Shown here: positions 3,166-11,918 of the stretch, piece by piece
How positions within the stretch are numbered: position 1 is the first letter of the stretch
How the letters are laid out: each line of letters starts with the position of its first letter
IMG/VR virus record: IMGVR_UViG_651053022_000002
Location: 1 to 13,426 of that record
Source of the DNA: a virus
Taxonomy: Duplodnaviria; Heunggongvirae; Uroviricota; Caudoviricetes
Direction: 5' to 3' (one strand)
Length of the DNA stretch: 13,426 nucleotides
Program-made: the position numbers and the translations under genes
The notes under the pieces: generated by a model
The model's database searches: none
The model's input: only the letters and a program-made list of their open reading frames with translations
Told to the model about the DNA's origin: nothing

Positions 3166-3480
3166 TTATTCTGGGAATAAGGTCTGAATATTCTTTTTTA
3201 TTTTATAAAAATTGCATTCAACTCCGCTAGGCTGATTATCCTGGTATGTTTCCTTGATGCTAACGGTATTGAAGGGGAGGTTGTCCTCTGGCCATTCGGC
3301 CATCCAGTAGGCAAATGCTGGGTTGCGCTTTATGAGCGCTAGCCCAGCCAGAAAGGCCGCGCGTTGCGCGCGGCTGCGTTCGGAGGCTGGCAGGCTATCG
3401 AGGTAATTGCACGCCTCCTGTTCACTCTTGACGGCGGCGGGCTTCAGATAGAAACTTATCCGTCTGGTTGGTGTCGTCAT
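3166..3480 (-). CDS. parR: ParR-like centromere-binding protein of a type II (ParMR) partition system, 104 aa
   Basis: ATG at 3480..3478 lies 4 nt after the parM stop. MTTPTRRISFYLKPAAVKSEQEACNYLDSLPASERSRAQRAAFLAGLALIKRNP... resembles plasmid R1 ParR as I recall it (RRTIAFKL...LDSIPQGERSRLNRAALTAGLALY). The ORF-track extension to 3615 overlaps parM and is rejected. Confidence 0.75.
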   Translation of the reverse strand: MTTPTRRISFYLKPAAVKSEQEACNYLDSLPASERSRAQRAAFLAGLALIKRNPAFAYWMAEWPEDNLPFNTVSIKETYQDNQPSGVECNFYKIKKNIQTLFPE

Positions 3481-3484
3481 TGGT

Positions 3485-4444
3485 TTACTCCTTGTCCATT
3501 GCGTACAGCCCATTAACCAGAGCAAACTGTGGCACCCCGTCCGCGATGAAAGTCGCATTAACTCCGCAGACTTCGCGGATAGCGGGTGCCACAATCTCCG
3601 CCCCTCCACCGACAACCATCACCCGCCCGTAACCCGAAAAAACCGCCAGCGCGCGGATCACGCGTTGTTTCAGTGTTTCTTCCTTTTCACGAATAACCGC
3701 CATCAGGCTGGCGTAATGCGCGTCATTGTGGATGTGCTGGCGCAGCCAGGCTTCATCATGGCGATGTTCGATAATGGTATTGGCGATGTGGTGACTGGTG
3801 CGCATACCGTTAGTGGCCATCACCGACAGTACGGCATCGGCCATCAGGGAAACGCCTACGTGTGGATCGCAAAACACCTGGCTGATACCTGCCAGTTGCC
3901 CTTGAACCTTTGCCACATCCAGCGTGGTTCCGCCTAAATCCACAATCAGCAGGGATTCAAACGGACTCATGTCAGCCAGTGCTTTAAAGCCAGCCGGAAT
4001 GGATTCAGGCATAACCCGCACGTTACGGATAGTGAATGCTTCGCCGTTCTGGTATTCCACCGGGCGCATAACGTTCGCTTTTTTGCGGTTGATGTTGGCC
4101 ATGTCCGGCTGTGCGTTTGTGTCGAAATACTCGCTCAGTGGCAGGGTGACAACCACATCCACCTCCTGTGGCGTGATGCCTGATTTGACCAGCGCGTGAT
4201 GAATGGCGATTACATTCACATCGCTGTACTGGTATTGCGTGTCGGTCGTCTGGACAAAGCGATCGCTAACCGGATCAAAACCATAGCGCACGCCATCAAG
4301 CATGTAGTTCGCGGGCTGCATGCCACCGAACGGCGCAGACCATTCCGACTTGAAGCTGTTCGGGCTGATGGCGTTGCGGCGTTCGCCATTCTCAGTCCAT
4401 GCCAGCTTGATGTTGGTGGAGCCGTCGTCGATACAAATTTTCAT
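3485..4444 (-). CDS. parM: ParM/StbA-like actin-type plasmid segregation ATPase, 319 aa
   Basis: MKICIDDGSTNIKLAWTENG...ISPNSFKSEW...YSDVNVIAIHHAL...VVVTLPLSEY...LIVDLGGTTLDV... carries the actin-fold phosphate motifs (IDDGSTNIK, DLGGTTLD) and closely tracks my recollection of R1 ParM. AAGGAAAA Shine-Dalgarno precedes the ATG at 4444. Confidence 0.9.
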   Translation of the reverse strand: MKICIDDGSTNIKLAWTENGERRNAISPNSFKSEWSAPFGGMQPANYMLDGVRYGFDPVSDRFVQTTDTQYQYSDVNVIAIHHALVKSGITPQEVDVVVTLPLSEYFDTNAQPDMANINRKKANVMRPVEYQNGEAFTIRNVRVMPESIPAGFKALADMSPFESLLIVDLGGTTLDVAKVQGQLAGISQVFCDPHVGVSLMADAVLSVMATNGMRTSHHIANTIIEHRHDEAWLRQHIHNDAHYASLMAVIREKEETLKQRVIRALAVFSGYGRVMVVGGGAEIVAPAIREVCGVNATFIADGVPQFALVNGLYAMDKE

Positions 4445-4462: not shown

Positions 4463-4590
4463 GATTAATTAATCGTTTACGGGATTCTGAAATCCCGTTT
4501 TTGCCTGTTTTGTGCGCGCTTCATATATCGCTGCGCGTTTTTTGCTCATTTACGGGATTCGTAAGTCCCGTTTCTGTCTGTTTTTTGTTT
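4463..4590. repeat. Centromere- or operator-like repeats: the AT palindrome gattaattaatc plus two copies (73-bp period) of a hairpin-containing unit
   Basis: gattaattaatc at 4463..4474. Unit A: acgggatt-ctga-aatcccgt at 4479..4498 followed by T-rich sequence. Unit B: acgggatt-cgta-agtcccgt at 4552..4571, same flanks (tttacgggattc...cccgttt...ctgtttt). Unit A is in the rep-parM intergenic region; unit B is inside the rep 3' coding end. Confidence 0.7.
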
Positions 4591-7343
4591 CCACTGGTCA
4601 GGCCACCCCGCAGCAGGTCTGCTTTGCGGCTGGCGCGTTCAGTGGTTTCACTGATTCTCTGTGCGTGCTCTGCGTCGCGGATGGCGCGCAGCATGTCAGA
4701 AAGCACGGTAACGGGTGTTTTCATGGTGTTCTGGCCCTGCTGAAGTGTGGATGCCAGGCGTGCGGCGGCTTCAGGGTCTGATGCCCCCAGCTGTGCCAGA
4801 TAGCTGGCGACCGGGTTATGGCGGATCTCCGTGCTGCTTACGCCATGATTACGGCTCAGGCGCTGCCAGAGCTGCGTGATTCGGCTGTCCGGGCGGGTAT
4901 CCGGTTTGCGTACAATTTCAAATCCCTGCGGTGCAATGATGCTGCCGTCAACGTACAGACTGCCGCCCCGTAACAGGTGCTGCATCTGTTGTTCACCGAT
5001 ATGCAGGCCGAGAGATTCAGCAGACTCCCGCCATTCTTTAGCGAGTAATTCGTGGTTATCAGGCAAAGGCCGCTGCTGTTTGCGGCTCTGTGTCCAGCTC
5101 TGCATTTCATCGCTGCTGTTTTTTGCCTGTTTGTCACGAAGCGAACGCATCAGCGCCCGGCGTTCGTGTCGTTTCAGTGAGCGCATCCATTCGTTCACTT
5201 CAACGCCGTCAGGGAGCTGCGGCCACGGTGCTGGCCGTTCTTCCGGCTGTTCTGTCCCGTTGTTGTCCGTTTCCTGTACACGGGGACAGTTATTGCCACG
5301 AGTCCAAGGGGCGGCAGGGCCGCCCTGAAGGTCAAAACCATTTTCGCGGGCGCTGTCTTCCGCTTCCGGTTTACGTCTTACCAGCTTCCAGTTATCCGGA
5401 TGCGTGCACACACGGGAGGATTCCCCGATGAGTGGTGACCAGATCCCGTAAATCTGTACGCTCTGTTCGCCGTAATCGTTCAGCTCATCTGCGAGGTCGT
5501 AGGCGGTGCGAATCAGGTAGTCCTTGCGTGGAACAAGCACGCCACCCTGTTTTTCAATGTAGGTGGCAAAACACCCGGCATCGGCGGCAGCGAGTACCGC
5601 ATCCATTGCATCATCTTTCAGCCGTTGCGGGCCTTCCGGATTGCGTGCCATCTGGCTGGCAAGGCGGCGCAGTTCACGCCACACCTGACGGGAGGGGATG
5701 CCAAAGAACTGGAACTGACGGACCCGGTGAAGGCGCGCCCAGCCGATGGCGCGCTCCACGCTCTCGGCCATTGATTTTCCGGTTTCGTGGTCCACGCGTG
5801 GCTTGCCCGTTTTCGGGTCGATGCCATCCACGGCGCGGCTGTCCAGGTTCTTTCCGATGTAGGTGGCGATGTAGCTGGTTGGCGTGCCTTTTGAGCCGTC
5901 GACATACTCCACCTTAAAGCGCGGAGTAATATCATTGCCCAGCTCGTGGCGGTCTTCCTGAATGGCAATATCGCGGGTATGGGACACAATGGTGTCGATT
6001 TCTTCCGGATGTGCAAAGACCATCATATGCCAGTGCACGGTGCCGTCATGATGAGGCTCCACCGTGCGGATGCCATACCAGCGCAGGCCGTCGCGGTTCA
6101 GTTTTTTGCGGACCGCCGCAAAAAACGTGTTAACCAGGTAATCGCTGGAGTCGCGCATTGTGGCCCCGTTCCATTTGGGATTCGGATGACCGTTCTCCGT
6201 TGTGGCGTGGTATTTTGACGGGCAGGTGACAGTCAGAAACACCGCTTTGTCGCCACGGGCTTCGGCCAGAAGTTCCAGTCCCTTCATGGTGGCCATCATT
6301 TCTGCCTTACGGTGAACCGGGTTACTTACTCCCGCGTAATACACTGTCTCGAGATCAATCGTGAACCCGTCTTCATTTTCCAGCATGAAACTTTTCAGGA
6401 AATCGCGTGTTTTCTCGCGCTGTGCGCGAAACTCGCTTAACGCGTCCTGGCTCAGATAGGGTGATGTTTTTCTGGAAACCAGACAGGCGGCGCGGAGTTG
6501 TTCTTCTCTCCACTCGCAACGTAACAGCCACAGTTTGCGTTTCCACCATTCCGCACAGGTCAGGCGAAGGATTGCGCCCGGCAGCAGCTCCGTGTCCGGT
6601 TCGTTCCTCCGGTCTTTGTCTGTTGTCAGTGCGTCATAATGTGGAGGCATGGCGTGCAGGTGTAACGCCATGCGGGCCAGCATCTGATACGCCTTCAGGG
6701 TTACATCCATGGTCAGCTCGCCATCGGTCGCGCCAAAGCCATCGCAGAGTTTTTCGAAGGTGCTGCTGAACATCGCCGCCGTCATGGTGGCCAGCGTCTG
6801 TATCTGGTGTTTGTTGAGCTGCGGCAGGTAAAGCAAATCGTCCAGGCGTTCGCGTCCGGCAAGGGAGCGATAACCCGGTGTCAGCCAGCGTCCGTCAGTG
6901 CTATCCAGACGTTCGAATATTTTGCGCAGGGTTCCGCGTGCATAGCGTTCCGCCTGCCAGCTCTTTTTGCCTTTCCGGCGATCGGCTTCCTGTTTTTTGC
7001 GCAGGAAGGAGAGGTGGCGAATAAGCGGATCGCGCAGATAGGACGGCAGCAGGCGCAGCGAGGCCATGGCTTCATCCACCGCGCCACGTGCCTGTTTTCT
7101 GGCGTCTCCTGCCAGTGTGATGGTTTTGTCCTGTTTTTCCTGTGCGTCCAGGCTTTTATTAATCAGGTTGCCCAGCGGCGTGGCTGAGAACGCCGCATCA
7201 GCCATTTCCTGGCGGCGCTCGTTCTCTGCCCGGTAGGCATCCAGCCAGGAGGAAAGCGCGGATTCAGGAGCGGGGATCCCCGTTCCTTCACGCCCCACTG
7301 CGTGGCGCGGTTGTTGCCAGTCCCTGAGGTACTCTGCCGTCAT
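4521..7343 (-). CDS. Rolling-circle replication initiator (HUH endonuclease, phage P2 gpA / phiX174 gpA superfamily), 940 aa
   Basis: Contains the HUH metal-binding motif (TVHWHMMVF) and, about 50 residues later, the paired-tyrosine motif SYIATYIGKNLD (YxxxY) typical of superfamily-I rolling-circle Reps. No Walker A motif was seen, so it is not a P4 alpha-type primase-helicase. Confidence 0.85.
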   Translation of the reverse strand: MTAEYLRDWQQPRHAVGREGTGIPAPESALSSWLDAYRAENERRQEMADAAFSATPLGNLINKSLDAQEKQDKTITLAGDARKQARGAVDEAMASLRLLPSYLRDPLIRHLSFLRKKQEADRRKGKKSWQAERYARGTLRKIFERLDSTDGRWLTPGYRSLAGRERLDDLLYLPQLNKHQIQTLATMTAAMFSSTFEKLCDGFGATDGELTMDVTLKAYQMLARMALHLHAMPPHYDALTTDKDRRNEPDTELLPGAILRLTCAEWWKRKLWLLRCEWREEQLRAACLVSRKTSPYLSQDALSEFRAQREKTRDFLKSFMLENEDGFTIDLETVYYAGVSNPVHRKAEMMATMKGLELLAEARGDKAVFLTVTCPSKYHATTENGHPNPKWNGATMRDSSDYLVNTFFAAVRKKLNRDGLRWYGIRTVEPHHDGTVHWHMMVFAHPEEIDTIVSHTRDIAIQEDRHELGNDITPRFKVEYVDGSKGTPTSYIATYIGKNLDSRAVDGIDPKTGKPRVDHETGKSMAESVERAIGWARLHRVRQFQFFGIPSRQVWRELRRLASQMARNPEGPQRLKDDAMDAVLAAADAGCFATYIEKQGGVLVPRKDYLIRTAYDLADELNDYGEQSVQIYGIWSPLIGESSRVCTHPDNWKLVRRKPEAEDSARENGFDLQGGPAAPWTRGNNCPRVQETDNNGTEQPEERPAPWPQLPDGVEVNEWMRSLKRHERRALMRSLRDKQAKNSSDEMQSWTQSRKQQRPLPDNHELLAKEWRESAESLGLHIGEQQMQHLLRGGSLYVDGSIIAPQGFEIVRKPDTRPDSRITQLWQRLSRNHGVSSTEIRHNPVASYLAQLGASDPEAAARLASTLQQGQNTMKTPVTVLSDMLRAIRDAEHAQRISETTERASRKADLLRGGLTSGNKKQTETGLTNPVNEQKTRSDI

Positions 7344-7349
7344 AGTGAT

Positions 7350-7715
7350 TTACTTCGTCATGCCATTCAGGGTGTCGCGGCAGACTGTAGCCAGCCGCTG
7401 AATTTCCAGCACGGTGTCTTCTGTGTCGGCATGGCGATGTGTGATGCGGATGCTGTCGGCAATCACATCGACGATTGCAGAGGATGGGCGCTGGTAAATG
7501 CCAATAACGGACGGGGTGCCACCTTCAATGCGGTAAAGCCTGTAATTTCCCTCGTGGCTGTCAATCATGTAGCGACCATCAATAACAATCTTTCCGTCAG
7601 CGAGCTGCGGTACAGGCAGGGATTTCAGGTACATGTCATAACGATCACGCACGCGAGCGGCAAGATCACGTTCTGTATTGAGCAGGTATTCAAGAAAGTC
7701 GTTGGCGAGAATCAT
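7350..7715 (-). CDS. Hypothetical protein (121 aa) immediately upstream of rep
   Basis: ORF 7350..7715 with AAGAGGA 7 nt before the ATG; its stop lies 6 nt before the rep start, suggesting co-transcription. Confidence 0.6.
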   Translation of the reverse strand: MILANDFLEYLLNTERDLAARVRDRYDMYLKSLPVPQLADGKIVIDGRYMIDSHEGNYRLYRIEGGTPSVIGIYQRPSSAIVDVIADSIRITHRHADTEDTVLEIQRLATVCRDTLNGMTK

Positions 7716-7787
7716 TGCGGCAATCCTCTTGTTACAGATGTGCGAAGGCCTCCCGCCGCAAGGTGCAGGAAAGGCCCGGAACAGGAA

Positions 7788-8018
7788 TTAATGGAGTTTG
7801 TTTTGCTGCTGGATGAGCTGTTGAAGCTCGTGCAGATCATCCGCCAGATAGCTGAAAACAGAGGCGGAATAAATGTTTGATAGTGCGTGGCTGCGCTCAT
7901 GCAGCATATTGATGTGCATGATTTGCGCGACGCGTGATGCGCGGGAAAGTCTGCGGTTGATTTCAGTCTGGATGTGACGACGCTCCGCGATAGCGCGGTG
8001 CTGTTTGCGGTTTGCCAT
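7788..8018 (-). CDS. Small basic protein (76 aa), possible DNA-binding regulator
   Basis: ORF 7788..8018, MANRKQHRAIAERRHIQTEINRRLSRASRVAQ..., Arg/Lys-rich N-terminus; AAGGGG Shine-Dalgarno upstream. Confidence 0.5.
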   Translation of the reverse strand: MANRKQHRAIAERRHIQTEINRRLSRASRVAQIMHINMLHERSHALSNIYSASVFSYLADDLHELQQLIQQQNKLH

Positions 8019-8196
8019 GGTGTGGCCCCTTGTGTAGTAAGTTGTGAAAACTCACCATCCAGAGCTGCGAAACTGTGGGTGGCGAGACGTACGAGGTTCG
8101 CAGTACCGGCTACACAAGAACCCGGCCCGACCGAAGTCGGCCCCGTACGCCCCGCCATAATTCTGACGCGAAAAAAACGTGGCAATACAGTACGCA

Positions 8197-8218
8197 CAAA
8201 AAAACCGCTGGCGCGGTT
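8197..8218 (-). terminator. Candidate intrinsic terminator on the minus strand inside the early operon
   Basis: Minus strand reads aaccgc-gcca-gcggtt followed by TTTTTTT (plus coordinates 8203..8218 stem-loop, 8197..8202 T-tract), about 120 nt after the 8341..8640 gene. Confidence 0.5.
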
Positions 8219-8340
8219 GTGCGCTTGTGTAGTCAGCAGGCTGCGAAACCCGGCACCCGTTTTATGAGGTGCAGCGGAAATGTAACCTGACTGATTGCGG
8301 CATGGCAAGCGGTTTTTTTGTGTGTGCATGCTCTGGTTTC

Positions 8341-8640
8341 TTACTGGTTCAGAAAAAAATCAAAAACCTTGTCAATACGTTGCAGCAGCTCTTGCTGTAT
8401 TGCTTCCGGCGTTTCCGGTTCGCCTGGCACCTCCAATGTCGCGCAGAAATCAGCGATTTCATGATGGAGCGTCAGGCGAATGGCAGGAGCCGTGGTTCTG
8501 GCGTGCTCCAGCTCATCCAGCAATGCCAGCGCAGCAGACGGCGAGAGCATTGCGCGAAATGCCAGTAATTTTTGAGGTGTTGCCATTCGTTGCAGGGCAA
8601 ATGCCAGTTCGCGTAGCTTCTGGTGGTTGATGGTGCTCAT
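8341..8640 (-). CDS. Hypothetical protein (99 aa)
   Basis: ORF 8341..8640 with GAAGGAAG Shine-Dalgarno; its start overlaps the upstream gene's stop by 4 nt. Confidence 0.6.
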   Translation of the reverse strand: MSTINHQKLRELAFALQRMATPQKLLAFRAMLSPSAALALLDELEHARTTAPAIRLTLHHEIADFCATLEVPGEPETPEAIQQELLQRIDKVFDFFLNQ

Positions 8641-8903
8641 GTTCTGGCTTCCTTCAGTAGCTGGTTAAACATGTGAGTAAGTGGATTGCTACACCCGAAC
8701 GGCATCGGGTTTACGTGGTAAGAAGCCTGGCCTCCAGTTTTGCGAGCGCGACCACCTGTGCTGCGGTTTGTTCTGATGACTAAGCCGCCGCGCCAAAGTT
8801 GGCGTAACTCAGCATTAATGGCTGTGGTTGGAGTATTCAGTGCTGCGGCGATCTCTCCGCCGCTACACCCCGGATGAGTAGCGATGTAGTCCAGAATGGT
8901 CAT
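8637..8903 (-). CDS. Hypothetical protein (88 aa), possible winged-helix DNA-binding protein
   Basis: ORF 8637..8903, AGGAG 6 nt before the ATG; MTILDYIATHPGCSGGEIAAALNTPTTAINAELRQLWRGGLVIR is an HTH-like segment; 4-nt overlap with the neighbouring gene. Confidence 0.6.
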   Translation of the reverse strand: MTILDYIATHPGCSGGEIAAALNTPTTAINAELRQLWRGGLVIRTNRSTGGRARKTGGQASYHVNPMPFGCSNPLTHMFNQLLKEART

Positions 8904-9126: not shown

Positions 9127-9537
9127 CTATGCGTTAAATACGGTGCACTGTGCGTCATCAATGAATGCGACTTGAGAGCGCTCTATCAGGCGGAGATTTG
9201 TCAGAATTTCTGATTCCCTTATGGGGTGAGGAGTGATCAGGTATTTATCCTGTAACCCGGCGATAATGGTGTATCGCTGTAGCTCCGAGCCAATTGTGTA
9301 AATAAGGCGTCCGGTGTTAGACAAATCCAGTCCGGTGACTGGTTGTGTTCTGAGAACCGCCAGTTCAGCATCCTGTTTTGCGATAATTTCGGCTGCTTCT
9401 GCCGTGACTCTTGCGACTATCAGTGTGTGGGTTGCGACGTCCATATGATTATTTGCTATGGCTTTTTTCGCTACTTCGTTTTCTGTCTTTGAAATTTCTT
9501 TCAGTGCTCTGATGATACCTTCTTCTTTTGCGTGCAT
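9127..9537 (-). CDS. Hypothetical protein (136 aa)
   Basis: ORF 9127..9537 with GGAGA 7 nt before the ATG; lower G+C than the rep region. Confidence 0.6.
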   Translation of the reverse strand: MHAKEEGIIRALKEISKTENEVAKKAIANNHMDVATHTLIVARVTAEAAEIIAKQDAELAVLRTQPVTGLDLSNTGRLIYTIGSELQRYTIIAGLQDKYLITPHPIRESEILTNLRLIERSQVAFIDDAQCTVFNA

Positions 9538-9630
9538 TTTTGTATCTCCGTTATTTGCGTGTGCGAATACCTCCGTTAATACGGATGGTTTTCACGTTTT
9601 CTTATTTAATTTGATGTTTTATTTGTATCG

Positions 9631-9744
9631 TTATTCACCAGTGAAAAAACGTTCAATCTTTTTTACTGAATGAATAATTCGCACAATGCCAATTGCGCAG
9701 ACCACTGAAATAATCAGAACAATCCATGACATAAATATACTCAT
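9631..9744 (-). CDS. Unlisted small hydrophobic peptide (37 aa), probably a single transmembrane helix
   Basis: My own translation: MSIFMSWIVLIISVVCAIGIVRIIHSVKKIERFFTGE. The ATG at 9744..9742 overlaps the upstream stop at 9743..9741 (ATGA coupling); GGGGA lies 7 nt upstream. Too short for the supplied ORF track. Confidence 0.4.
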   Translation of the reverse strand: MSIFMSWIVLIISVVCAIGIVRIIHSVKKIERFFTGE

Positions 9745-9983
9745 GCGATATTCCCCAGCTTATACGGTTCAATATGTTCCCCGCATTCTGCGGCACAGAT
9801 CAGCTCGGAAAGTTCGTTAAGTGCATCCAGATCATCAGCGTAAAAAGCCACGTCATACAGACTCCGGATTGCCCTGGTCAATGAGTCACGGGCTGCACGT
9901 TCAGCATGAGCGCCTGATGCACTTAAGCGAAAATAAAAACGCTCAAGTGCTTTGTTAATGAGAGTTTTATATTCTTTGCCCAT
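9741..9983 (-). CDS. Hypothetical protein (80 aa from the internal ATG)
   Basis: ORF 9741..10034 trimmed to the ATG at 9983..9981 (MGKEYKTLINKALERFYFRL...), which avoids overlap with the upstream gene. Confidence 0.5.
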   Translation of the reverse strand: MGKEYKTLINKALERFYFRLSASGAHAERAARDSLTRAIRSLYDVAFYADDLDALNELSELICAAECGEHIEPYKLGNIA

Positions 9984-9994
9984 CGCAACGCCCT

Positions 9995-10273
9995 TTAATC
10001 TGCTTTCTGAATTTCTGCTTCTGAATCCATACAAATAATTTCGATATAGGGTTCATCGCCATTAGTCTTACGTGCTTTTTCCGCTTCGCTAATGATTTCG
10101 TGTACAGTCTGGTACGGAAGTTCTACGGTCAGGCGCGTGCCGTTCAGATAAACGTAAGTAGCTGCATTTTTTTCGGATGGAACAACTCCGTCAATGGCTG
10201 ATGCGCGTAATAACAGTTCACCGCGAAAATCAATAAAACGGATAAATACACCTTGTGCATGCTCTTTGGTCAT
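9995..10273 (-). CDS. Hypothetical protein (92 aa from the internal ATG)
   Basis: ORF 9995..10333 trimmed to the ATG at 10273..10271 (MTKEHAQGVFIRFIDF...), with AGGTG upstream and a 10-nt gap to the preceding gene. Confidence 0.5.
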   Translation of the reverse strand: MTKEHAQGVFIRFIDFRGELLLRASAIDGVVPSEKNAATYVYLNGTRLTVELPYQTVHEIISEAEKARKTNGDEPYIEIICMDSEAEIQKAD

Positions 10274-10283
10274 AAAGCACCTG

Positions 10284-10634
10284 TTATAAATCAGCCTGTT
10301 TAATAAAACTTTGCCCGTGAAGCAGACGATCAACCGTGCGAAGTGCTTCGTATAATGTGAAATCCTGCCCGAACTGATTGTCGCCGTTGCTCAGTGCAAA
10401 AATGCGGTTTCCGGTAAATGGGTTGCGCTGGCATCTGTGAACCACGATTCCTGCTTTTTCAATCAGCCAAGTGTGTTCACCAATTTGTTTTACTGGGTAG
10501 CCATCCGGCGTTGCGTGTGTTTCGCTCAGGCTGTAGCGAGAGTTGCTACGTGATGCACTGGTAGCGAAACGGTTAGCATGGCGTTCCGCACCGTTGCGGA
10601 AGCGCTGCTGTGAAGAATTGCGCTGTAGTTTCAT
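10284..10634 (-). CDS. Hypothetical protein (116 aa), first gene of the leftward early operon
   Basis: ORF 10284..10634; the ATG at 10634 sits just downstream of a palindrome-containing promoter region. Confidence 0.55.
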   Translation of the reverse strand: MKLQRNSSQQRFRNGAERHANRFATSASRSNSRYSLSETHATPDGYPVKQIGEHTWLIEKAGIVVHRCQRNPFTGNRIFALSNGDNQFGQDFTLYEALRTVDRLLHGQSFIKQADL

Positions 10635-10645
10635 ATTAAAACTCT

Positions 10646-10737
10646 GTACCTTCGGTAAGGTGTACTCGTGTCACCTTGTATTGATTTGTGGTATTTTTTT
10701 TGTGTGTCTAGGACTTGGACTGGCCGGTTCAGGTCCT
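10646..10737. promoter_or_regulatory. Divergent regulatory region with two inverted repeats
   Basis: accttCGGTaaggt at 10648..10661 (5-bp arms); imperfect inverted repeat aggacttggac / gttcaggtcct at 10710..10737 (9 of 11 positions complementary, 6-bp spacer). Lies between the minus-strand early operon and the plus-strand 63-aa ORF. Confidence 0.35.
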
Positions 10738-10771
10738 GGCTTATGTTTAATTAAATTGTTAAGAGGTTTTC

Positions 10772-10963
10772 ATGTCAGAAGATAAAAAAGTTGTTAATTT
10801 GTTGAGTGAACTTAGTGCTGCTCTGGATAACATTAACCCTCCCAGGGTAAAAACGACGGGTGATAAAGACGCATTAAACACAGAGATTCATATATTACTG
10901 GCGTTAGTAACTGACAAAATTCAGCGTAAATACCCACCTGTCACACAACTGGTTGATTTTTAA
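10772..10963 (+). CDS. Small hypothetical protein (63 aa), AT-rich, the only plus-strand gene in the interior
   Basis: ORF 10772..10963, MSEDKKVVNLLSELSAALDNINPPRVKTTGDKDALNTEIHILLALVTDKIQRKYPPVTQLVDF, with AAGAGG 6 nt before the ATG; convergent with the 141-aa gene. Confidence 0.5.
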   Translation: MSEDKKVVNLLSELSAALDNINPPRVKTTGDKDALNTEIHILLALVTDKIQRKYPPVTQLVDF

Positions 10964-10969
10964 TTTGAT

Positions 10970-11392
10970 TTATGCCGGGCTGCTCCCGGCATCTTCTACC
11001 TGCCATAATGTCTCGTCACCTGATAGAGCAAAACGAAATGAGTGAAGTATATCCCCCCGAGAGAAGCTCACGGCTACAGCTGCGGGAAAGTCAAATATAA
11101 TCCCACCTTCATTTTTAAAACGATTACGCAATTGATAGGCTATCGGTTTGATTTGTGCAGGAAGAGTATCTATATCTCTTCCATTGACAACAGAATCTTT
11201 GTTTTCAAGTACTGATTTAGCGATTAGATATAGATGCCAGTAACTGGTTACAATTGTTACTCCTGTGATGTGTCGTAAATTAATTGCAATTCGTCCGTTA
11301 TTATGTTTTTCCGCAAGGTATTTCAGGTTATCAATTAATGCTTGGTCATTTTTTGAAATAGTTATTGTGAAATCTGACGTGTTTGTTTTCAT
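10970..11392 (-). CDS. Hypothetical protein (141 aa) in an AT-rich segment; candidate cargo (moron) gene
   Basis: ORF 10970..11635 trimmed to the ATG at 11392..11390, 4 nt after the upstream stop. Protein MKTNTSDFTITISKNDQALIDNLKYLAEKHNNGRIAINLRHITGVTIVTSYWHLYLIAKSVLENKDSVVNGRDIDTLPAQIKPIAYQLRNRFKNEGGIIFDFPAAVAVSFSRGDILHSFRFALSGDETLWQVEDAGSSPA. I counted 23/60 G+C in line 11101..11160 versus 41/60 in rep line 5701..5760. Confidence 0.6.
   Translation of the reverse strand: MKTNTSDFTITISKNDQALIDNLKYLAEKHNNGRIAINLRHITGVTIVTSYWHLYLIAKSVLENKDSVVNGRDIDTLPAQIKPIAYQLRNRFKNEGGIIFDFPAAVAVSFSRGDILHSFRFALSGDETLWQVEDAGSSPA
10972..10992 (+). terminator. Hairpin (8-bp stem) just after the 63-aa ORF; possible terminator overlapping the 3' end of the convergent 141-aa gene
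   Basis: atgccggg-ctgct-cccggcat at 10972..10992, 9 nt after the TAA at 10961..10963; the following tract (cttct) is only weakly U-rich. Confidence 0.3.
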
Positions 11393-11396
11393 ACGA

Positions 11397-11918
11397 TTAG
11401 TTGCCTCTGTTGTTTCTGAGTTGGTCCAGTTTTGAGCTTCTGCCTGTATAAACTCGCTTACCGTTAATGGTCTGGCAGTCTTCTTTATTAGCTGGAGAGA
11501 ACTTCCTTTTCTGGCGGTCATACGTCCAGTAACTTTTCCAGTTGTGCCATTCTGGGGGCTCGTGCTCTGGTAGCTCATCAGCCAACTTGTCCCACTCTTT
11601 GGCGTTAAACCACCATACTCCGTCTGAGTTTTCATCTTCCGGGTTTGTGCGCGTCTTGTGTCCCGGCATTTGACCGCGATGAATGGCTACGCGCAGTGCA
11701 GATTTTGTTAGCCCAATATATGCCGCGCCTTTTTCCAGAGAGCAAAGCCCGGCGATCGGACCATCCAGCCGCAAAGTCGCTCCTTTTTTGTAGGAACGCT
11801 TTTTCTTGTTTTCTTCGTGCTCGTCGTCGTTGGCGGCATCAATGGATCCGCTGAGTGCGTCACTTTCCTGAAGTGGTTGGTGGTCAGATAACTCTTTATC
11901 GGCAATGAAGTCCCGCAT
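11397..11918 (-). CDS. Excisionase/Cox-like HTH protein (173 aa) with an acidic N-terminus, divergent from the repressor
   Basis: ORF 11397..11918 with AAGAGGA before the ATG. The segment GAAYIGLTKSALRVAIHRGQMPGHK...GVWWFNAKEWDKL looks like an Xis/AlpA/MerR-type HTH with wing; its position mirrors cox/apl in P2/186-type switches. Confidence 0.6.
   Translation of the reverse strand: MRDFIADKELSDHQPLQESDALSGSIDAANDDEHEENKKKRSYKKGATLRLDGPIAGLCSLEKGAAYIGLTKSALRVAIHRGQMPGHKTRTNPEDENSDGVWWFNAKEWDKLADELPEHEPPEWHNWKSYWTYDRQKRKFSPANKEDCQTINGKRVYTGRSSKLDQLRNNRGN

Follow-up and report, generated by a model that had tools for sequence, protein, structure and literature searches.

In the early operon of a P88-like Escherichia coli prophage, a gap between two small genes is very probably an RNA immunity cassette of the type found in the immI region of phage P1 and the immunity region of phage P4. 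The gap occupies positions 8019-8340 of the 13,426-nucleotide (nt) stretch of viral DNA that we analyzed (IMG/VR record IMGVR_UViG_651053022_000002, hereafter the window). This assignment is based on six observations: membership of the region in known RNA families, complementarity between antisense and target sites, three-way covariation of these sites, overlap of one target with the Shine-Dalgarno sequence of the following gene, homology of that gene's product to the P4 epsilon protein, and a reading frame that is maintained through the entire module. The original prediction, made from the DNA letters alone, had described a non-coding gap with a strong minus-strand terminator and structured, GC-rich sequence; its limits are borne out, the gap being bounded by the ATG of a 76-amino acid (aa) gene (8018) and the stop codon of a 99-aa gene (8341). 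That interpretation proved broadly right and is now supported by comparative evidence, while the RNA families, the antisense targets and an overlapping Eta/Ash-like frame had all gone unrecognized.

Two regulatory RNA families occupy the gap

A scan of the whole window with Rfam models returned only two matches, isrK and C4, both inside the gap and on the minus strand. The earlier suggestion that the region could encode a small regulatory RNA is thus realized by two curated families, each above its gathering score. The elements of the module, from its promoter onward, are as follows.

8308..8279, minus strand: putative constitutive cassette promoter from a consensus scan (-35 TTGCCA at 8308..8303, 18-nt spacer, -10 TACATT at 8284..8279)
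8272..8198, minus strand: IsrK / c4-a1b1 / seqA-like small RNA (Rfam RF01394, 65.2 bits against a gathering score of 50; model positions 1-77 of 77)
8218..8198, minus strand: IsrK intrinsic terminator from a terminator scan (stem 8218..8213 / 8208..8203, loop GCCA, U7 at 8204..8198)
8162..8075, minus strand: C4 antisense RNA, homologue of P1 C4 and P4 CI (Rfam RF01695, 83.2 bits against a gathering score of 45; model positions 1-87 of 87, E = 1.5e-15)
8086..8051, minus strand, followed by UUUU (to 8047): alternative hairpin (-16.5 kcal/mol, z = -3.0)

The C4 element consists of a 17-base-pair (bp) P1 stem, a P2 helix with a UUCG loop (8140..8127) and a P3 helix that carries an antisense loop, termed b'. 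The second hairpin of the original prediction, ccgac-cgaa-gtcgg, lies at 8127-8140 and corresponds to helix P2. The expectation of stable structure was equally well founded, as the minimum free energy (MFE) fold of the C4 stretch equals the model structure and has an energy of -47.7 kcal/mol (z = -4.5), a value that none of 200 shuffled sequences reached. For comparison with related elements, we collected 83 copies of the region (80 IMG/VR loci that encode a protein sharing at least 92% identity with the 76-aa product, the window itself, P88 and Shae_phiSM) and aligned 12 type representatives, among which compensatory changes are found in C4 helices P1 and P2. Alignment to the annotated ends of P1 c4 places the predicted mature RNA at approximately 8156..8078. 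Its 5' end contains a conserved AUG (AAUUAUGG; window 8156-8158) that is the start of Gifsy-1 'orf45'. Judging from the P1 c4 5' end, an RNase P cut would fall between the U and the G of this AUG, so that the start codon would be lost when C4 matures. In the alternative hairpin, the 3' strand of C4 P1 pairs instead with GGAUGGUGAG, leaving the a2 target (listed below) in the apical part; a GGUGGUGAG-type element was seen in the diverse copies that were read. This hairpin is possibly an attenuator or a target-presenting structure, and overlapping terminator hairpins of such a kind have been noted in C4 loci (Weinberg et al., PMC2864571).

IsrK begins with a 5' hairpin (8272..8253) and continues with a second hairpin (8252..8237) that holds the a1 target in its loop, the b1 target just 3' of it, and the intrinsic terminator. 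The terminator hairpin reported originally, AACCGC-GCCA-GCGGTT on the minus strand (8218..8203) running into U7 (8204..8198), was recovered independently by the terminator scan; in the isrK model it forms the 3' hairpin, and it is invariant across the 12 type representatives. The c4-a1b1 model (RF03163) was absent from the gathering-threshold scan of the window, in which only the isrK model was reported for this element. RNAs of this family are expressed as discrete Hfq-binding sRNAs, and of the features expected for that, a promoter-like site and a terminator are visible here. A spacer of 35 nt separates IsrK from C4. IsrK immediately precedes C4 in each of the 14 non-P1 phage loci tested (P88, Citrobacter Shae_phiSM, and Stx-converting and other lambdoid, Salmonella, Klebsiella and Hafnia phages) as well as in P4. 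Two further Rfam matches fall near but outside the cassette in related loci, namely sRNA-Xcc1 in phage TL-2011c (L016 535-618) and an ALIL pseudoknot in Stx2_131990 (L005 47-163).

The terminator had earlier been taken to imply either regulated read-through or a separate promoter for the downstream replication gene. Both proposals fit the present assignments: the terminator is that of IsrK, whose counterpart in Gifsy-1 is partly read through (Hershko-Shalev 2016, PMC4825925), and a sigma-70-like site (8308..8279) ends 7 nt before the IsrK 5' end, with a predicted transcription start at G8272. Lambdoid, Hafnia and Klebsiella copies, and likewise P1, have a -35/-10 pair at an equal distance from the start of the RNA; the P1 counterpart is annotated as P1c4/P51b. 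Among the 83 copies the site is nearly invariant. The promoter scan found two sites against 1.3 expected by chance; the other, TTGCCA-17-AATTAT at 8185..8157 in the IsrK-C4 spacer, was judged to be a chance match, as its start would fall inside the C4 P1 stem.

Antisense and target sites change together

C4 carries two antisense segments, each complementary to one target in IsrK and to a second target downstream of C4.

8249..8240, minus strand: a1 target GUUUCGCAGC (core UUCGCAG at 8247..8241), located in the hairpin-2 loop of IsrK and the same 10-mer as a2
8232..8224, minus strand: b1 target CUACACAAG, complementary to b' at 9 of 9 positions
8118..8110, minus strand: b' antisense loop CUUGUGUAG, the hypervariable C4 P3 loop and a perfect complement of b1 and b2
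8103..8097, minus strand: a' antisense segment CUGCGAA (7 nt), at the C4 P3/P1 junction and complementary to a1 and a2
8073..8064, minus strand: a2 target GUUUCGCAGC, starting 2 nt after the end of the Rfam C4 match (8075)
8037..8029, minus strand: b2 target CUACACAAG, overlapping the first 3 nt of the Shine-Dalgarno sequence AAGGGG (8031..8026) of the 76-aa gene

The region thus contains the 10-mer twice, as a1 and a2, and the 9-mer twice, as b1 and b2. Among the 83 copies the scaffold is near-invariant, with minor-allele fractions of 0.18-0.29 in the six a/b sites as opposed to 0.01-0.10 elsewhere. The copies comprise 13 a/b combinations, in which five a-types and ten b-types reassort, and in every combination a1 is identical to a2 and complementary to a', while b1 closely matches b2 and both are the complement of b'. 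The cognate b' helix is 9 bp long with b1 in all types and 7-11 bp long with b2, whereas non-cognate partners form a mean of 4.6-5.0 bp.

The covariance analysis across homologous elements that the original prediction had proposed as a check supports pairing in all four long-range helices. In the alignment of type representatives, a1:a' comprises seven pairs, four of them changed on both sides, and b1:b' nine pairs, six changed on both sides, with 100% of cells paired in each case; a':a2 likewise has seven pairs, four changed on both sides and 100% paired, and b':b2 nine pairs, five changed on both sides and 96% paired. None of 500 shuffles matched the covariation score of these helices, and controls in which the partner was slid by 1-3 columns were only about 40% paired. 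Together, these data are strong evidence that C4 would pair with both target sets and that the sites would act as specificity determinants, as in P1/P7 heteroimmunity. In the MFE fold of the read-through transcript, a1/b1 of IsrK are paired in cis with a'/b' of C4.

Four pairs of copies share an IMG/VR genome ID, which we read as co-residence, and two of these pairs differ in a/b type whereas two are alike. L017/L095 and L090/L096 are P88-like copies that carry different a/b types under the same genome ID, a hint, from a small sample, of heteroimmune co-residence.

An epsilon-like gene follows the cassette and a long reading frame crosses it

Two coding features adjoin or overlap the RNA elements.

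7788-8018, minus strand: 76-aa epsilon-like 'derepression' gene (Pfam Derepression PF25738, E = 6e-8)
8329..7712, minus strand: Eta/Ash-like open reading frame (ORF), 205 aa (Pfam Phage_ASH PF10554, 26.0 bits; PHROGs at about 1e-15)

The 76-aa protein is 29% identical to P4 epsilon (E = 4e-9), and its gene lies with its ATG 11 nt from the last base of b2. The product is an epsilon-like putative anti-repressor, encoded by what would be the first gene under C4 control. An identity as an Icd homologue was considered and rejected, as the protein is without similarity to P1 Icd and its Pfam match is to Derepression rather than Ant.

The 205-aa ORF starts upstream of the internal promoter and crosses IsrK, C4 and, in another frame, the whole epsilon-like gene; its stop codon overlaps the start of the next gene, orf121, as ATGA (7712-7715). 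It thereby completes a chain of translated frames that runs from the 99-aa gene across a 12-nt gap to the Eta-like ORF, through the ATGA to orf121, and across a 6-nt gap to gene A. The original prediction had dismissed this ORF as low-complexity and found no credible ORF in the gap, a judgment borne out neither by its matches to Phage_ASH and PHROGs nor by its persistence: from the junction ATG to the common stop, the frame is intact in 78 of the 83 copies. The region is therefore better described as RNA genes embedded in a maintained reading frame than as a plain non-coding gap. Mutually compensating frameshifts occur in three independent cases (L059; L073/L087; L078/L086), and at least five different upstream contexts each supply an in-frame ATG at the homology junction. 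Cassette homology breaks just 5' of a conserved repeat arm described below (window 8322-8329 compared with L002, L036, L045, L075, L086 and L095), and the cassette behaves like a mobile unit whose left boundary is defined. In 14 of 17 diverse loci, the whole module is spanned by the frame that the conserved AUG at the start of C4 (AAUUAUGG) sets.

The P4 eta ORF scores 82 bits on the Phage_ASH model, over exactly the span of seqA, CI and seqC, and the 205-aa ORF occupies the same frame and position relative to C4 as does eta. Our own reading is that translation, as in P4, is what would keep the Eta-like frame open. Its amino-acid sequence looks unconstrained and its variation follows RNA pairing, with 30 synonymous and 196 non-synonymous codon differences where it overlaps the epsilon-like gene; on this reading, the resemblance among 'Ash' proteins would follow from conservation of the RNA. 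The 'Ash' domain of lambdoid phages forms an N-terminal extension of Rha-type regulators that covers isrK-C4. The Phage_ASH and PHROG 'transcriptional regulator' families map onto translated isrK-C4-a2b2 (window 8006-8284; L097 8330-8704; L009, L007 and L015). Many of the N-termini that databases list as 'Ash family', 'antirepressor' or 'transcriptional regulator' are apparently cassette RNA read as protein.

A model for the cassette and its alternatives

From the P1, P4 and Gifsy-1 systems we infer the following course of events. In a lysogen, the constitutive internal promoter (approximately 8308..8279) would start transcripts at about 8272, most of which would end at the U7 terminator to yield an IsrK RNA of about 75 nt bearing a1 and b1. 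Transcripts that read through would carry C4, which would be excised (at its 5' end by RNase P, as in P1) as a stable antisense RNA of about 79 nt. Pairing of C4 a'/b' with a2/b2 in the epsilon-like leader would cover the ribosome-binding site and block translation; orf121 and gene A would probably be silenced too, through polarity or termination, both in the lysogen and in newly arriving phages of like type. The a1/b1 sites of IsrK, acting in cis or in trans, would compete for C4 and so shift the balance toward expression. Early-promoter transcripts, by comparison, would be translated through the cassette in the Eta/Ash-like frame, and this translation, as in P4, should prevent both termination and C4 action, such that gene A is made in lytic growth. 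The hypervariable a/b sites would set the specificity of immunity.

Several points weigh against this account. The IsrK stretch alone is energetically ordinary (z = -1.0), and because its fold energy is unremarkable, support for IsrK comes from the covariance model and from the other loci. The promoter, transcript ends and RNase P cleavage are assigned in this phage by homology. Since the 83 copies are closely related, the open 205-aa frame is partly inherited, and the argument for selection on it accordingly draws on the three independent compensated frameshifts. The Eta-like ORF has a weak Shine-Dalgarno sequence, and pairwise BLASTP of its product against P4 Eta, and likewise against the old 'cI protein', gave no significant similarity. 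Two of the four pairs of copies with a shared genome ID are of the same a/b type, and these may be assembly duplicates. Lastly, repression may act either on translation, as in P1, or on termination, as in P4.

The latter possibility, in which the same cassette operates by the P4 route, supposes that C4 binds the nascent RNA at a1/b1 and a2/b2 and thereby causes premature termination, with shut-off of gene A as its main role. We consider this somewhat unlikely. The order of elements is closest to that of P4 (isrK-C4 within an Eta-like ORF, then epsilon and a replication gene), the alternative hairpin with its UUUU overlaps the C4 3' strand, and such a mechanism is the one summarized for P4 (PMC10111431). 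Nevertheless, the overlap of b2 with the Shine-Dalgarno sequence and the 11-nt gap to the ATG, as in P1 icd, are a hallmark of the P1 mode, and the terminator scan did not call the short UUUU tract. The two modes are also not exclusive of one another. In P1, the translational block causes Rho-dependent polarity.

A further feature, a lineage-specific 21-nt inverted repeat around IsrK, could instead be the key device of the region.

8325..8305, minus strand: upstream arm, codons 2-8 of the Eta-like ORF, holding an A7 tract just upstream of the -35
8212..8192, minus strand: downstream arm, comprising the terminator loop, the 3' half of its stem, the U tract and 6 nt beyond

Under this explanation, which we regard as unlikely, the upstream arm, present in early transcripts, would pair with the 3' half of the terminator and its U tract, serving as an anti-terminator or an RNase III site and making read-through dependent on the promoter used. 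The arms are complementary at 19 of 21 positions, for which a rough by-hand estimate gives a chance expectation of about 5e-5 in 470 nt, and folding of 8325..8192 produces a long helix that abolishes the terminator (-54.7 kcal/mol, z = -5.3). The upstream arm is also kept in all 83 copies whatever lies upstream, across at least five contexts. Both arms, however, are almost invariant, such that covariation provides no test; the local hairpin, with its 4-nt loop, should win kinetically over a partner 90 nt upstream; and the A7 tract is also well placed as a promoter UP element. No analogue of the repeat was found in the P4, lambdoid, Hafnia and Klebsiella copies in which one was sought. The repeat could serve in anti-termination, be cut by RNase III, or reflect a promoter UP element together with a coincidental match.

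It is far less probable that the region is a protein gene only, encoding a 205-aa Ash-family/Eta-like regulator whose conserved coding sequence generates the RNA-family matches as a by-product. The Pfam and PHROG 'transcriptional regulator' matches, the frame that stays open in 78 of 83 copies with its compensated frameshifts, and the occasional RefSeq label of 'ash family protein' would be expected of such a gene, but the Pfam score exactly equals the cut-off, and the comparison with P4 Eta was, as noted, not significant. The variable positions are paired RNA sites that change together in three places, a pattern for which codon constraints give no explanation. From the ATG at 8018 onward, the long frame shows its 30/196 ratio of synonymous to non-synonymous differences against 104/123 in the epsilon-like frame, and the P1 module lacks a spanning ORF, yet C4 is annotated there as an RNA with targets. 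Plain operon punctuation, that is, a non-coding spacer with an attenuating terminator, incidental GC-rich hairpins and no trans-acting RNA, can practically be set aside: it would account for a terminator-like site and for the unexceptional fold energy of IsrK alone, but both hairpins lie within covariance-model matches well above their gathering scores, a passive spacer cannot yield covariation among three sets of sites that lie up to 200 nt from one another, and the cassette recurs in lambdoid phages, P1 and P4.

Returning to the immunity cassette, we can only tentatively propose a broader role, in which IsrK-C4 of the P2 family would form a promoter-dependent gate before the replication gene. 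Internal transcripts would be stopped or silenced by C4, early ones would escape through Eta-like translation and the 21-nt helix, the a/b 'barcodes' would record an arms race of RNA heteroimmunity, and the epsilon-type anti-repressor would offer an SOS-independent route to induction.

Genomic context and prevalence

The window is a P88-like (Xuanwuvirus, Peduoviridae) P2-family prophage of E. coli; positions 7700-8700 are 100% identical to three deposited phages and approximately 87-96% identical to P88 relatives. Gene positions in the early operon were taken from the PV468777 annotation, shifted to window coordinates.

11397-11918, minus strand: cox
8637-8903, minus strand: MarR-like small gene
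8341-8640, minus strand: Ead-like 99-aa gene
7350-7715, minus strand: orf121 (phrog_3237, E = 3e-55), with no assigned function, downstream in the same transcription unit as the 76-aa gene
4521-7343, minus strand: replication endonuclease gene A, 940 aa (Pfam Phage_GPA, E = 5e-131), the 'rep' of the original prediction

The order on the minus strand is hence cox, small genes, the gap, the 76-aa gene, orf121, gene A and parM-like genes. NCBIfam gave no match for any of the four local proteins, and orf121 showed no significant similarity to P4 orf151 or orf106. The ParM-like segregation/partition genes (3166-4444, annotated as such in PV468777) constitute a module of plasmid-type maintenance genes within an integrating P2-like phage. 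Over part of the early operon (9200-11600) the GC content falls to 0.37-0.45; this part includes a lone plus-strand ORF of 63 aa (10772-10963) and looks like a moron-type insertion.

The 322-nt region is present in 1283 of 5426 complete E. coli genomes, in up to four copies per genome and 1432 copies in all, which places cassette-bearing prophages in about a quarter of them. RefSeq gives it either no label or that of 'ash family protein', and databases generally leave the region blank or call it 'ash family protein' or 'antirepressor', where it actually holds two regulatory RNAs. The cassette accounts for the strong terminator between the early genes and the replication gene in this very common prophage family, and its a/b types furnish a natural series of matched antisense/target variants with which the specificity of RNA-based immunity can be tested.

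Comparison with known immunity systems

The cassette belongs to a known system that is newly placed in P88-like phages, and it introduces no new principle. C4 and the a1b1 motif have been described before, with the proposal that a1/b1 compete with a2/b2 for C4 (Weinberg 2010, PMC2864571). Relative to P1/P7 immI (P51b - a1 b1 - c4 - a2 b2 - icd - ant), the order of elements is the same and the spacings nearly so, with 67 nt here between b1 and the predicted 5' end of mature C4 and 11 nt between b2 and the ATG. P1 C4 belongs to the same Rfam family, and its a/b sites set specificity, as P1/P7 heteroimmunity illustrates. The output differs, in that P1 controls Icd/Ant whereas the cassette here would control an epsilon-like protein without similarity to Icd. 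The upstream element here also has its own strong terminator (the IsrK form), in contrast to P1, where the c4-a1b1 model is found, and the module here lies inside an operon and a long ORF, whereas no such ORF spans the P1 module.

The Rfam C4 and isrK models also detect P4 CI and seqA (PMC10111431); in P4 we find isrK at 8692..8615 and C4 (the CI RNA) at 8507..8420, upstream of epsilon. The P4 arrangement (PLE - seqA - CI RNA - seqC within eta/kil, epsilon ... alpha) thus likewise sets isrK and C4 before an epsilon homologue and a replication gene, and in both phages a Phage_ASH-matching ORF begins before the internal promoter and continues across the two RNAs. Translation of eta from the upstream promoter prevents termination in P4 (summarized in PMC10111431). 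The spacings are shorter here, at 35 nt against 107 nt between IsrK and C4 and at 57 nt against 245 nt from the end of C4 to the start of epsilon. The replication protein is a P2-type gpA here and the alpha primase in P4, and a full P2-like phage is compared with a satellite. The P4 type is further marked by CI-dependent premature termination at a Rho-dependent site and by a nested kil gene, of which no equivalent was recognized here.

In Gifsy-1, an RNA of about 80 nt, STnc1160 ('orf45'), is processed from the transcript that reads through the IsrK terminator, and IsrK acts in trans to activate translation of a downstream anti-repressor (PMC4825925). The Gifsy-1 IsrK-orf45-anrP module therefore shares with the present one a short, self-terminating IsrK, a downstream RNA of about 80 nt complementary to it, an anti-repressor output and an AUG at the C4 5' end (AAUUAUGG), and the cis pairing of a1/b1 with a'/b' resembles Gifsy-1 'structure A' (PMC4825925). 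That STnc1160/orf45 is a C4 homologue is our own reading and is not stated in that study. The frame from the C4 AUG runs here for 149 codons to the ATGA of orf121, whereas the Gifsy-1 frame stops on the anti-repressor start, and the Gifsy-1 anti-repressor is of a different protein family from the epsilon-like output. The RF03163 c4-a1b1 motif likewise has two hairpins, the second loop holding a1 and b1 following directly 3' of it (PMC2864571). It overlaps the isrK matches in P4 and in Klebsiella phage NAR688, and the isrK model adds the terminator to it. In the lambdoid phages (L004-L011), the cassette sits between cII/roi-like genes and the O/P replication genes, and thus is again immediately upstream of anti-repressor and replication genes.

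P1 C4, P4 CI/seqA/eta and Gifsy-1 IsrK/orf45, which have been studied separately, are in this way linked as one cassette. Sequence comparison places the synteny of the P88-like version closest to the left operon of P4, and the geometry of its sites closest to P1.

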